Shown here in pieces: positions 57,952 to 61,711 of a DNA stretch of 64,000 nucleotides. The stretch lies in sequence record PQ462667.1; one strand, given 5' to 3'. Source of the DNA: Escherichia phage HMD-P3. The number at the start of each line of letters is the position of its first letter. Position 1 is the stretch's first letter. The notes under the pieces were generated by a model, which saw only the letters and a program-made list of their open reading frames with translations, ran no database searches and was not told the origin of the DNA. The position numbers were made by a program, and so were the translations under genes.

Positions 57952-59739
57952 TTAGGTAAGGCGTTGAACTGTTACTCTTAATCTCGGTAGGAAAATAGCT
58001 GCAGCCTCATCAGCGTGAATAATTACGCCCAATTCAGCATTACCATTTCCTAGATTTTTAATAGTATAAATATATCCGTTTCTTCTAAATGTTAACTCAT
58101 CAGGTCTACTTGCCCAAGTTTGAGTATAACTGTATGCAGTAGTGGAGTGATAAGGGACTAAGTATCCAGGAGGTAAGGTTAATATTTGATGGAATATTCC
58201 ATCACCTTCCGTGTAACTATGCTGTCTTCTTCCTTGTACTTGCCAAGCAGTACCACCGTATGTGCGTATGGCTCCTCCAGCCGTATTAATATTACCCATA
58301 ATAACTTCCGTAGTTAATATTACCGTTGCGTTAGCATTAGGTAATCCTAGTCCTATGGTAGCTAGAGCCGTATAATAGTTTCCTGCTCCAGGATACGCTG
58401 GGGTTATATCATCACCAACGTAGGTACTAGCAACATTATTAGGAAATAGTCTTAAAGGTACAGTACTAGGACTCCACACAGCTCCATGCTCATTACCGAT
58501 AGTGTTATTACTTGAGTTTACGTACCATTGCTTACCAGCTCCGAACTTGTAAATACTAATCTGAGACTTAGCCCCTCCATAATCTACAGGAGACCATAAA
58601 GATCCATTACTAGAGCCTACAATTTCACAACGCGCAGTGGTATCTCCAAAGGCTCCAGTGTACGCTGCGTTATTTCCAATGTACTCCATATCTGGTCTAT
58701 AGCCTAAATTACCAAAAGCATTTTGGTTGATAAACTTATATCCAGTATTTGGTAAACTAACCCCTTTTACAGTAAAATTAGATGGAGTTATAAGTATATC
58801 TGATCCGGTAAATGGGTTACCAGATACACCCATATTACCATTAGAATATCTCAAATTAAGTACATACCAAATAACCTTAGTAGGAGTTATGTTATACCAA
58901 TCCTGCACATACACTTTCTTAGCGGCCTGTGCTGCTAGATTAGATGTTGAACCTTTACATATATAAACCTTATCAGGATACGTAGGAGATTGGTATAATA
59001 AGTTAACATTAGCTGGTACTGTGCCCTTTTTACCTACGTAACCTCGTATATTAGAGTTACAAACGTAAAACCAATTATGCCCTCTATGGGCGGCCCCTAT
59101 AGGAGCTTGCCAGTTAGGATGCCAGTAGTCAGCATTACCACCATCTATAGGTACTGTAGACGCTCCTGCTGGAAATCCTGCTAAAGTCCATGCCCTTCCA
59201 ATAGCCTCGCCAGCATATGCACCACCAGGCCTATATAAATTAAATCCAGAGGCTTGAGATATAGTACCTCCTGTACCCTGCCTAGCAATTGACTCTTCAT
59301 GCCCTAAACCAGAGTTATAAATATAAGTGCCATGTGCTAAGCTGTTACCTGATGCAAAAGCTGACGTAAGACCTACTTCTGCACCTGCCCTACCAATAGG
59401 CGGATCTTCAAAAAATGCAGTAAATTGACCAACTTGAGACTGAGTACCATTAAGAAAAGCCCTATGAGTACCATTAATCTCAACGGCAGTTAGTATAACT
59501 CTACCAGGGTCGTTGGATTTAATATTTATTATGTCAGAGGGCATCTGACATACAAAAAACCCATTTCCAGCATTTCCTAACCCAGCCTCATAAGTACCAT
59601 CAACTAGGACAAATGGCATATCACTATGAAAAATACTATTGGCATTTGGACTATAGTGACGATTAATGTCACCACCAGATTCAGTATTTAAAGATAGTAC
59701 GGTCTTACCATCGCTATATTTTCCAGCGAAAAAACCCAT
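57952..59739 (-). CDS. receptor-binding tail protein (T5 pb5-like)
   Basis: 595 aa, Gly/Asn/Tyr-rich beta protein; located at the distal end of the late region, divergent from a lipoprotein gene exactly as oad/llp in T5. Confidence 0.6.
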
Positions 59740-59764: not shown

Positions 59765-59793
59765 TTGCTTTCATCCCTCTATTTTGCTATAAT
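59765..59793 (+). promoter_or_regulatory. T5-type promoter with extended -10 upstream of the lipoprotein gene
   Basis: TTGCTT 59765..59770, 17 bp, TGcTATAAT (TATAAT 59788..59793), then AGATTCATAAATTAGAAATGGAGAG and ATG 59825. Confidence 0.65.
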
Positions 59794-59824: not shown

Positions 59825-60091
59825 ATGAAAAAGTTTGTGATTGCACTAGTTGCCGCAGTTATGTTATCTGGTTGTGCACCTGCTCCCAAACCATTTTGTA
59901 CTGGATTTGTAAAATCTTTTGGTGGTGCGGGAGAAGAACATTACGGCCTCAAGATTCAAAAAGTTCGTATTAAGGGAGATCGCTTCCCAGTAGTACAGCT
60001 CCGTACTAAGTTTGGGTGGTGGGATCTCAGTCAGTTTGATCTTAAATATGGGGATTGTAAATTTAAACTAGAGCAATCTAACTACCTGTAA
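59825..60091 (+). CDS. llp: Llp-like lipoprotein (receptor-blocking superinfection-exclusion protein)
   Basis: 88 aa; signal peptide MKKFVIALVAAVMLSGC with lipobox LSGC; divergent from the RBP gene. Confidence 0.7.
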   Translation: MKKFVIALVAAVMLSGCAPAPKPFCTGFVKSFGGAGEEHYGLKIQKVRIKGDRFPVVQLRTKFGWWDLSQFDLKYGDCKFKLEQSNYL

Positions 60092-60204
60092 TTAGTATAA
60101 AGCAAAAAGACATCCAAGTAAACTAAATTTTTTATTTTTTGGATGGTATATTGGTAGAAACCACTATGTAAGAAAAGTAGAAGTCCTTCTAGGAAGTCAC
60201 AAGC

Positions 60205-60396
60205 ATGGTTGGTTATGCACAAACTATAAAATATTCCAAATACAACATTTACAGGAGCATGAAAGATATGTCAAATAAAAGAAAGAACAGACGCGGAGAA
60301 GTGTACGAAAGTTGGATAAATAGTTTCGGATTTGGTTTTGTATTATTCCTAATCTTCGTAGGCTTTTGGTTAGCAGCTATGGCGGGGTGGATATAA
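60205..60396 (+). CDS. small membrane protein (63 aa, C-terminal TM helix)
   Basis: Basic N-terminal half then hydrophobic GFGFVLFLIFVGFWLAAMAGW; AGGAAG RBS. Confidence 0.45.
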   Translation: MVGYAQTIKYSKYNIYRSMKDMSNKRKNRRGEVYESWINSFGFGFVLFLIFVGFWLAAMAGWI

Positions 60397-60500
60397 TGGG
60401 AGTAATAATTATTATTTTATTAGTTGTGATAATTCTAGGGCAGTGTGTCTTGGATAACCACTTAGCTCGTATTGAACGTAAGCTACGGGAATATAAATAA
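60396..60500 (+). CDS. small membrane peptide (34 aa), not in the supplied ORF track
   Basis: ATG overlaps the upstream stop (TAATG); translates to MGVIIIILLVVIILGQCVLDNHLARIERKLREYK; its stop overlaps the next ATG (TAATG). Confidence 0.4.
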   Translation: MGVIIIILLVVIILGQCVLDNHLARIERKLREYK

Positions 60501-60745
60501 TGTTTAGTATTGTAATTGCTTTTATTATCGGGATACTCGCGGGAGTTTTCGGGACGACTGCGGTAATCAACAAGCATCGTAAATATATTGCGGGGGTGAC
60601 GCGGGAGATTGCGGAAAGGGAGCGGAAGTTTGACGAGAAACGTGCGGAGTTTGAGCGGGAGTGGTCAGATGGATCTCGGGCGTCGCGGAAGAGATTCCGT
60701 GAGTTTAGACCAGAACACAGGTTTGATGACCCTTCTATGCGCTAA
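60500..60745 (+). CDS. small membrane protein (81 aa, N-terminal TM helix, charged C-terminus), GC-rich codons
   Basis: MFSIVIAFIIGILAGVFGTTAV then Arg/Glu-rich tail; G/C-ending codons unlike the rest of the window. Confidence 0.45.
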   Translation: MFSIVIAFIIGILAGVFGTTAVINKHRKYIAGVTREIAERERKFDEKRAEFEREWSDGSRASRKRFREFRPEHRFDDPSMR

Positions 60746-60896
60746 TTTGACTTTTGCCAAATTTCATAAGATTACACATGGAGGTGTGTCCAGTGGCCTC
60801 CCAGATGAGAATGAGTCTCGTTACCGCCCGGTACTTAGCAGACTAATAGTCACGGCATGTTATCATTGCACACCGTGACTATTTCAATTTTAATTA

Positions 60897-61631
60897 TTAC
60901 GCAACTTTTAATTTCTCAATATATTGTTGCGGGCTGCAACTATATTCTGCGCGTTCTTCTTCGGTCATACTTTCCCAACATAATTTTAAGCGATCGGCTA
61001 GGAACTGATAATCATTATCATCCTCGAGAGATTCATCAATAAAGGTTCCGCCTATCAATGCCGCGCCGATCGATAGAATATCATTAACGGCTTGCGCATC
61101 TAGCGTTTTAAATCCATATGATGCCGCTGCTGATAATACACCTTTATGATCATCAATCATCGTAAAATCAGCATTCGGATATAACTGTTTAAATAATTCA
61201 AAATAATAACTTTTATATACTGCGTCCTTGCTGTGGTATATTTCGCTAACCTTATCAGCCTCAAAATATTTATGCAGTGTATCACGGGAAAATACACGGA
61301 TATTACTATCCCCACGCCCGCGCAATCCTTGTTTACGCAAATAATAATAATCCGACTTGCTCATCAGTCGAGCGGTACAAATAATGTTTAAAGTATTTGC
61401 GTCATTCATGCATTGGCGCATATATTCAACTAATGGTAATAAAGTATCTTGCATAATTAAATCATGTTTGCAAGCCTCATTTTTATACTTATTTAAATCT
61501 AAATTCCCATCGCTATCAAAGCAAGGTGCTACACGATGGAATGAGTTAACGATAGTGCCATCCAGATCCCAGATCATGACGCGGGAAATATGCGGGAAAT
61601 TACGGGAAATATTCGTTTTAACTTGATTCAT
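60897..61631 (-). CDS. HAD-type 5-prime-deoxyribonucleotidase-like phosphatase (T5 dmp-like pre-early gene)
   Basis: HAD motif I MIWDLDGTIVNSF; start set at ATG 61631 (GGAGA RBS), giving 244 aa; longest ORF from 61673. Confidence 0.65.
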   Translation of the reverse strand: MNQVKTNISRNFPHISRVMIWDLDGTIVNSFHRVAPCFDSDGNLDLNKYKNEACKHDLIMQDTLLPLVEYMRQCMNDANTLNIICTARLMSKSDYYYLRKQGLRGRGDSNIRVFSRDTLHKYFEADKVSEIYHSKDAVYKSYYFELFKQLYPNADFTMIDDHKGVLSAAASYGFKTLDAQAVNDILSIGAALIGGTFIDESLEDDNDYQFLADRLKLCWESMTEEERAEYSCSPQQYIEKLKVA

Positions 61632-61711
61632 TTTGTTACGTTCTCCATTAAAGGGATGTAGTTTATCCAGCATTGCCCGCTATTTATAAGCGGGCAATAA
61701 TAAATCAACTA

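Follow-up and report, generated by a model that had tools for sequence, protein, structure and literature searches.

Introduction

In the genome of phage T5 (NC_005859), the genes T5.159, T5.160, T5.161 and T5.162, each annotated as 'contains single transmembrane domain', are found just before the right terminal repeat, whose annotated start follows T5.162 by 42 nt. The gene cassette that they form is already known, in that it is annotated in T5 and PHROG families exist for it, and the locus tags T5.159 to T5.162 are named in no paper of the literature library that we searched. Small, non-essential membrane proteins are also made by other phages, as exemplified by T4 Imm and Sp, HK97 gp15 and P22 SieA, and some of these are encoded near tail or host-range genes. 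They are single genes, whereas the T5-type cassette is a coupled chain of three to five, and no sequence relationship of the cassette to exclusion proteins of the Imm/Sp/gp15/SieA type was found in PHROG, Pfam or PADLOC. On its other side, the cassette is flanked by llp. Llp/Cor is a receptor-blocking lipoprotein responsible for lytic conversion (Decker et al. 1994; PMC9586334).

We have analyzed a stretch of 64,000 nt from Escherichia phage HMD-P3 (PQ462667.1), hereafter the window, which covers the right-hand portion of a genome of T5-like (Tequintavirus) type. Three consecutive plus-strand ORFs, ending at 60396, 60500 and 60745, had attracted attention in an earlier sequence-only reading as putative genes for tiny membrane proteins. 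These ORFs, here called genes A, B and D, are the HMD-P3 version of the T5.159/T5.160/T5.162 cassette, which is conserved in the Markadamsvirinae. They are orthologous to the T5 genes and share with them order, orientation, position, lengths (42, 34-35 and 81 aa) and one transmembrane (TM) segment each, the difference being that T5 has a T5.161-type gene and HMD-P3 does not. What the present analysis adds to the existing annotation is a corrected start of gene A, at 60268, and the removal of the cassette from the pre-early programme.

Results

Gene content and gene starts

The region described here begins on the left with the receptor-binding protein (RBP) gene (57952-59739, minus strand). The three ORFs adjoin an llp-like gene, as the sequence-only reading had stated: the gene upstream of them (59825-60091, plus strand) encodes an 88-aa llp/Cor-type receptor-blocking lipoprotein (PHROG 1119, E 1.7e-26) with an LPAM_1 lipobox, LSGC, and the gene at this position is annotated in relatives as encoding a receptor-blocking or Cor protein. 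Genes A (60268-60396), B (60396-60500) and D (60500-60745) follow on the plus strand. They are convergent with dmp (5'-deoxyribonucleotidase; 60897-61673, minus strand), which is the first gene of the terminal repeat, is pre-early and is annotated in relatives; an A2-region gene and A1 lie further to the right, likewise on the minus strand.

The first of the three ORFs had been taken to encode 63 aa from position 60205, but this start lies too far upstream. In only 4 of 26 distinct loci does the open frame extend back to an ATG at 60205, and many aligned relatives have ACG in its place. By contrast, all the relatives compared preserve the ATG at 60268 and, 10 nt before it, the GGAG of the Shine-Dalgarno (SD) sequence AGGAG (60253-60257), and PHROG 8596 (E 5.4e-31, profile 1-42 of 42) matches only residues 22-63 of the 63-aa reading. 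On these grounds, gene A is placed at 60268-60396 and encodes 42 aa, matching both T5.159 and the PHROG 8596 profile in length.

Gene B, which was said to be missing from the ORF track, is listed there as a 44-aa ORF with a TTG start (60366-60500); its conserved start is the ATG at 60396, which gives 34 aa, and PHROG 6369 matches the product with E 1e-16 over profile positions 1-34 of 35. The product of gene D matches PHROG 6447 over the full profile (E 1.2e-46, 1-81 of 81) and is 85% identical to the T5 protein. The TAATG stop-start overlaps reported at the two junctions are indeed present, with TAA at 60394-60396 overlapping ATG at 60396-60398, and TAA at 60498-60500 overlapping ATG at 60500-60502.

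Conservation across T5-like phages

The cassette occurs in about 435-445 T5-like phage records, all of Markadamsvirinae type (434 phage records carry gene A, and 443 carry gene D). Its setting, on the plus strand from llp to the right terminal repeat and convergent with dmp, recurs in T5, chee24, KPP2018, L6jm, Bas31 and 24 viral contigs. Among the 26 distinct loci, the architecture is A-B-C-D in 15, A-B-D in 9 and A-B'-B-C-D in 2. Here, C denotes the T5.161-type gene (64 aa, located between B and D in T5), which is absent from HMD-P3 as it is from 9 of the 26 loci, and B' is a 51-aa paralogue of B found in some relatives (hhalign probability 95%). Comparisons of the same kind gave no paralogy between B and C (probability 32%) or between C and D (0.3%). 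More distant T5-like Klebsiella phages have unrelated proteins of 74 and 151 aa at this place, each with an N-terminal TM segment followed by a helical region, and C is unrelated to the 74-aa protein (probability 10%); a Proteus relative has no such protein at the cassette position. Natural deletions occur in D, and gene content differs between phages.

The junction overlaps of 1, 1 and 8 nt are conserved in all 26 loci, and the 1-nt TAATG overlap of A and B is kept in 24 of the 24 loci in which these two genes are adjacent. This conservation fits translational coupling, as had been proposed from the HMD-P3 sequence. Starts, SD sequence and overlaps are maintained in all loci compared and the genes are present in more than 430 genomes, as expected if the earlier call of genuine genes was right, and pooled Nei-Gojobori pN/pS is 0.17 for A, 0.31 for B, 0.43 for C and 0.40 for D (comparison genes: llp, 0.19; dmp, 0.09). 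A, B and D are protein-coding genes under purifying selection. It could be argued instead that these frames stand open by chance in intergenic DNA rich in A and T, and that no protein is made from them; at 34-81 aa they are very short, T-rich sequence readily yields hydrophobic ORFs, and A and B have RNA-seq counts of approximately zero in the relative Bas33 (see below). Such counts are, however, shared by every checked gene that is shorter than the reads, and the cassette genes on either side do give transcripts; moreover, pN/pS values well below 1, together with starts, SD sequence and overlaps conserved in all loci and the presence of the genes in more than 430 genomes, speak against chance frames, which we consider exceedingly improbable.

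FhuA-type loci (T5, L014 and L020) are totally divergent until approximately 35 nt before the SD sequence of A and are homologous from there on. RBP and llp constitute a receptor-specific module that is exchanged between phages, with its right breakpoint approximately 35 nt upstream of the SD sequence of A, and the cassette is conserved whatever the receptor type.

Position relative to the terminal repeat and timing of expression

The sequence-only reading had placed the three genes in the terminal-repeat-type region and, consequently, among the first genes to enter the cell. Alignment with T5 leads to a different placement. The T5 repeat boundary (T5 111532) aligns to position 60787 of the window, 41 nt after the D stop at 60745, and hence gene D ends to the left of the repeat rather than inside it. 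With the start of the repeat set at 60787 by this homology, the cassette adjoins the terminal repeat from the outside, in unique DNA. A conserved block of 34 nt at 60759-60792, which reads AAATTTCATAAGATTACACATGGAGGTG and then TGTCCA, spans the left boundary of the right terminal repeat. This block is nearly invariant in most of 29 aligned loci, with a divergent allele in five and no convincing match in one (L027), and it stays beside the repeat despite the insertion of 218 or approximately 490-540 bp after D in relatives. One viral contig terminates 4 nt beyond the mapped boundary, and other records put the boundary even nearer to dmp. According to the notes of the T5 record, the left end of the genome enters first and the left repeat is the first-step-transfer (FST) DNA; because the cassette lies at approximately 91% of the T5 map, it is the last unique DNA to enter the cell.

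Expression data are available for Bas33, a Tequintavirus that was subjected to RNA-seq at 20 min with and without daunorubicin, with two untreated replicates (PMC13250531 Dataset S01); daunorubicin arrests infection after first-step transfer (PMC13250531). We assigned the Bas33 genes from their order and exact lengths and checked the assignments against the Bas31 annotation. The data, which are unstranded and cover one time point in a relative of HMD-P3, gave TPM values in the two untreated replicates of 219 and 127 for llp (0192), 162 and 137 for B' (0190), 462 and 408 for C (0188) and 22 and 13 for D (0187), with 0 for all four under daunorubicin (PMC13250531). An extra gene (0186) with untreated values of 525 and 444 fell to about 0.2-0.3 (log2FC -11). 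Conversely, dmp (0185) and the pre-early genes 0184 and 0183, all expressed in untreated cells, had log2FC values of +0.67, +1.04 and +0.8, respectively, under daunorubicin (PMC13250531). A (129 nt) and B (108 nt) of Bas33 had counts near zero, like other checked genes shorter than the 150-nt reads.

B', C and D of Bas33 are therefore transcribed at 20 min and not from first-step-transfer DNA. When only this DNA was in the cell, the countable Bas33 orthologues were silent, and dmp, 0184 and 0183 were on. Together with a repeat boundary that falls to the right of D, this silence overturns the view that the cassette belongs to the terminal repeat and is among the first DNA to enter, and an accessory role in injection, exerted from the incoming genome, is incompatible with such timing.

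We infer that the cassette is transcribed rightward together with llp, since the genes lie on the same strand and no terminator-like element was found between llp and A (60092-60268). A probable llp promoter, read from the sequence at 59765-59793 on the plus strand, consists of TTGCTT, a 17-nt spacer and TGcTATAAT (an extended -10 element), and T5 has an annotated promoter at the same place upstream of llp. A consensus promoter scan omits this site because its -35 element matches at only 3 of 6 positions. The scan also returned no dedicated promoter for the cassette, and the sequence TGgTATATT at 60144-60152, upstream of A, is not conserved in FhuA-type loci; the llp promoter likely drives the cassette as well. 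In the llp-A spacer, RNA folding gave no signal of structure (z -0.18). At the other end, a hairpin with an 11-bp outer stem, followed by a U-rich stretch (60847-60881, plus strand), was found by RNA folding inside the terminal repeat and probably terminates the cassette transcript; T5 has a different hairpin at this position. Simple co-transcription is at odds with the D mRNA signal in Bas33, which is 20-30 times weaker than the signals of the neighbouring genes.

Predicted membrane topology and homology

Hydropathy analysis (Kyte-Doolittle, 19-residue means) detected a single hydrophobic segment in each of A, B and D, with means of 2.35-3.11, in agreement with the one TM helix per protein predicted earlier. 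None of the cassette proteins has a lipobox or a signal peptide. The A protein starts with the basic sequence MSNKRKNRRG and ends in a TM helix (hydrophobic residues 19-42) that reaches the last residue. The B protein consists of an N-terminal TM helix (hydrophobic residues 1-19) and a short, basic, amphipathic tail, DNHLARIERKLREYK. In the D protein, an N-terminal TM helix (hydrophobic residues 1-23) leads into a long, highly charged E/R/K-rich helix and a variable C-terminal tail; the AlphaFold2 model is one helix comprising residues 2-69, with a mean pLDDT of 75.

Counts of K plus R in the flanks of the TM segments are high at the N-terminus of A and after the TM helix in B and D. From this distribution and the positive-inside rule, applied here to very small proteins, all charged soluble parts are predicted to be cytoplasmic, with A oriented N-in and tail-anchored, and B and D oriented N-out and C-in. 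The D protein would accordingly project a charged helix of approximately 45 residues from the membrane. This orientation counts against a role in exclusion, since cytoplasm-facing domains are not the first expectation for proteins that block an incoming tail tip or the channel formed by the TMP.

Searches of Pfam, NCBIfam and PADLOC returned nothing above threshold for the cassette, and no cassette protein could be linked to any function by homology at that level. For D, a word-indexed search of 5.8 billion proteins yielded 82 clusters and a profile search of 1.84 billion representatives yielded 5 representatives; the named sources were T5-like phages or Salmonella in both cases, and neither search revealed a homologue outside T5-like phages. 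Below threshold, D matched LapA_dom (PF06305) with E 3.5e-4 and 20.8 bits, against a Pfam gathering cut-off of 28, and it also matched ZapG/YhcB-like and FtsL families. LapA (PF06305) and YhcB/ZapG (PF06295) have the same architecture as D, namely, an N-terminal TM segment and a cytoplasmic charged helix. Membership of D in the LapA-domain family was rejected, given that the match lies below the cut-off and that the search of 1.84 billion representatives found no such relatives.

Many bacterial small membrane proteins act by binding inner-membrane proteins. The phage proteins might similarly be modulators of host takeover, each inhibiting or redirecting a host inner-membrane protein, such as a transporter, a protease such as FtsH, a factor of division or envelope biogenesis, or a membrane-bound defence effector. 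Their size and architecture resemble those of the bacterial small-protein regulators, their soluble parts are predicted to be cytoplasmic, the weak matches of D to LapA_dom and to the ZapG/YhcB-like and FtsL families point in this direction, and PHROG 6447 is categorized as 'moron, auxiliary metabolic gene and host takeover'. All of these matches, however, fall short of the curated thresholds and are of the kind that helices of biased composition typically give; we can name no target, and the chaining and constant co-occurrence of the genes would be left unexplained. We therefore regard separate host-directed roles as unlikely.

A role in lysis, raised in the sequence-only reading as holin/antiholin-like control, has also been weakened. 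The T4 antiholins RI and RIII are small proteins of a size similar to that of the cassette proteins, and, like holins and i-spanins, they share with the latter the combination of an N-terminal TM helix and a helical extension. The cassette proteins might be antiholin-like regulators of lysis timing that, as RI and RIII do in T4, adjust or postpone hole formation, here by binding the T4-T-like class III holin of T5-like phages. We know of no description of lysis inhibition in T5. T5-like phages do have a T4-like set composed of a class III holin and PseT.2/PseT.3-type spanins (PMC6813398); binding to the holin is plausible for small TM proteins that have charged helices, and variable gene content is as expected of an accessory function. 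The T5 lysis genes, however, are encoded elsewhere, with the endolysin T5.040, the holin T5.041 and the Rz-like spanins T5.044/.045 at 20-23 kb (PMC4342426, PMC6813398), which is approximately 90 kb from the cassette on the T5 map. T5.041 and T5.040 themselves lie at 20-21 kb. The cassette has no lysis gene on either side, stands outside the lysis cluster and shows no similarity to any holin or antiholin family. Furthermore, the predicted C-in topology is opposite to that of i-spanins and of RI, which acts in the periplasm. The cassette does not qualify as a two-component spanin either: B and D are predicted to be C-in, T5 has its own spanins in T5.044 and T5.045, and the lipoprotein adjacent to the cassette is Llp, with a proven role different from that of an o-spanin. 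Overall, we consider control of lysis timing to be distinctly unlikely.

The G-rich core of gene D

The codons of the third gene had been described as GC-rich and unlike those of the rest of the phage, and the measurements bear this out. The GC content of D is 0.50, versus 0.39 for the window, and third-position G reaches 0.41 in D and 0.57 in its codons 25-66, compared with 0.157 +/- 0.032 in 42 proxy genes. CGG accounts for 5 of the 13 Arg codons of D, versus 1.6%, and GCG for 6 of the 7 Ala codons, versus 9.7%. No other 150 nt of the window are as rich in G as the core of the gene (60539-60688, plus strand), which contains nine GCGG motifs. These are spaced at 21, 30, 11, 10, 11, 22, 11 and 30 nt, roughly multiples of 10.5 nt. 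The motifs are built from GCG-G and G-CGG codon pairs, that is, in two codon registers. Nine GCGG in 171 nt compares with 2 per kb overall, and the cluster is unique, the next best in the window or in T5 1-50 kb holding 4-5. In a sample of 29 loci, all closely related, the 4-fold degenerate sites that form GCGG have a diversity of 0.051, versus 0.257 at the remaining 4-fold sites of the gene (Mann-Whitney p 0.003); the G-ending sites of dmp are not conserved.

Several candidate origins or uses of the core were examined and rejected. TRF found no tandem repeat; visual inspection shows no more than a loose heptad pattern of 21 nt. A phage tRNA that reads CGG was considered, and the T5 tRNA-Arg has the anticodon UCU. 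As for an overlapping gene, every locus has an open +1 frame through the core, but this frame is simply poor in T and differs in its ends between loci, from 202 to 376 nt; a database 'protein', P0080, is a frameshift fusion.

These features raise the possibility that D serves additionally, or even mainly, as a cis-acting nucleic-acid element. In one version, the array would bind a packaging, end-processing or replication protein near the genome-end junction; in another, SD-like GGAG sequences and rare CGG codons would pause ribosomes after the N-terminal TM segment emerges. The uniqueness of the cluster, the formation of the same 4-mer from two codon registers, the spacing and the 5-fold lower variability of the GCGG-forming synonymous sites, set beside the unconserved G-ending sites of dmp, are all consistent with such an element, and the GCG and CGG codons are very rare in the phage, CGG being unserved by its tRNA-Arg. 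Nevertheless, the phasing of approximately 10.5 nt coincides with the 3.5-residue heptad in the helix that D encodes (IAGVTRE / IAERERK / FDEKRAE / FEREWSD) and is therefore no proof of a role at the DNA level. We also rejected the array as a terminase site with constant spacing to the cut, since insertions of 218 to approximately 540 bp between D and the boundary block leave no fixed geometry with the cut site. There is also no matching array at the other repeat boundary of T5, no second GCGG array in T5 1-50 kb and, apart from the terminal hairpin, no signal of RNA structure in D and downstream of it (z -1.07). Considering both sides, including the close relatedness of the 29 loci, we judge a nucleic-acid function of D to be rather improbable.

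Discussion

The explanation that we consider the most satisfactory, and on the whole probable, is that genes A, B and D are the conserved T5.159/160/162 cassette, linked to llp and encoding a candidate accessory complex of the inner membrane. Coupled translation would give fixed ratios of the three proteins, which would most likely assemble into a small hetero-oligomeric complex in the inner membrane; coupling and co-occurrence are the two observations that suggest complex formation. Such a complex would be accessory and not essential, as the variable gene content and the natural deletions in D suggest.

Comparison with Llp indicates what the accessory complex might do. Llp and the cassette proteins are encoded adjacently, on the same strand and probably on the same transcript, and both count among the small envelope proteins that are produced once second-step transfer has taken place. 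Unlike the cassette, which is conserved across receptor types, Llp is a secreted outer-membrane lipoprotein that acts on one receptor and is exchanged with the RBP. In evolutionary terms, the cassette would stay unchanged while the adjacent receptor-specific RBP-llp module is swapped. Superinfection exclusion was among the roles put forward in the sequence-only reading, and we tentatively suggest, as a possibility to be held with reserve, that the complex shares the lytic-conversion function of Llp, through receptor-independent exclusion or attenuation of the DNA entry of other T5-like phages at the inner membrane or through some other protection of the converted envelope. A more specific proposal, in which a receptor-independent exclusion complex acts at the DNA-transfer step as a second layer behind Llp, and/or the GCGG array acts in cis, appears doubtful to us. 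If the array does act, it might serve as a protein-binding array near the concatemer junction or as a pause that aids co-translational insertion.

Independently of the function of the putative inner-membrane complex, the GCGG/rare-codon core, conserved at synonymous sites, offers a small and clean test case for nucleotide-level selection inside a phage gene. The cassette itself consists of near-core genes of a model phage and lies beside the only known exclusion gene of T5. If a role in exclusion or in conversion of the envelope is true, it would matter for the design of T5-like phage cocktails.

Results and discussion

The exchangeable RBP-llp module, which encodes the receptor-binding protein and the receptor-blocking lipoprotein and determines receptor specificity, has its right breakpoint at approximately 60230, about 35 nt 5' of the Shine-Dalgarno sequence of gene A (the T5.159 homologue, 60268-60396, plus strand). 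Phages of the FhuA type and those carrying the 88-aa llp type are homologous to the right of this breakpoint and unalignable to its left (loci L005, L014 and L020). In the distant T5-like Klebsiella phage vB_Kpn_K7_rec7, no llp-type lipoprotein lies between RBP and dmp, the first gene inside the terminal repeat; this interval (L032 4353-5036) encodes two unrelated proteins of 74 and 151 aa, each with a TM helix at the N-terminus and a helical region after it. The pair is a positional analogue of the cassette.

The length of gene D (the T5.162 homologue, 60500-60745, plus strand) varies naturally through in-frame indels of 12, 21 and 51 nt (L029 2546-2713; proteins P0068, P0072, P0075 and P0079), and in some phages D tolerates the loss of half of its TM helix. 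The end points of the L029 indel fall between direct GCGGG repeats, equivalent to 60539 and 60590 in the window, and these repeats are therefore deletion-prone. D is overlapped in the +1 frame by an 89-codon open frame (60609-60878) that spans the repeat boundary, and one metagenomic "protein", P0080, joins D to this frame by way of a frameshift. Every locus keeps the frame open, yet it is probably non-coding, because its ends vary and its composition is T-poor. The sole GCGC near the cassette (60736-60741) overlaps the last codons of D (ATGCGCTAA) and, when read on the minus strand, matches the T5 nick consensus 5'-N-Pu-pGCGC-N, as quoted in the T5 record; this fit may be due to chance, since GCGC is common in the window (73 occurrences).

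The interval from the D stop (60745) to the conserved block at the repeat boundary is a hot spot of gene insertion: relatives carry an additional 218 bp or approximately 490-540 bp here (L003, L017, L018, L020, L021, L023, L025 and L029). One of these inserts, that of phage SP01, bears an HNH/homing endonuclease annotation, and bas33_0186 of Bas33 is 540 nt long. The C-terminal tail of D varies with the insert (EFRPEHRFDDPSMR, MSESGDKPVDRRSS, AKVSDEE or KIDGKS). In published Bas33 RNA-seq data (PMC13250531 Dataset S01), the D orthologue 0187 reached a TPM of 22/13, 20-30 times below both flanking genes, namely C (the T5.161-type gene; 462/408) and 0186 (525/444). Such a gap is odd for a single transcript; attenuation, processing or a bias in sequencing the G-rich core of D might account for the low signal.

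A 34-nt block (60759-60792) straddles the left edge of the terminal repeat and shows almost no variation in most T5-like loci; five loci carry an alternative allele, AATTTCTTTGGATTACGTACGCGTGGGTGTGTCCA. This block is likely a recognition or cut site in the formation of the genome end.
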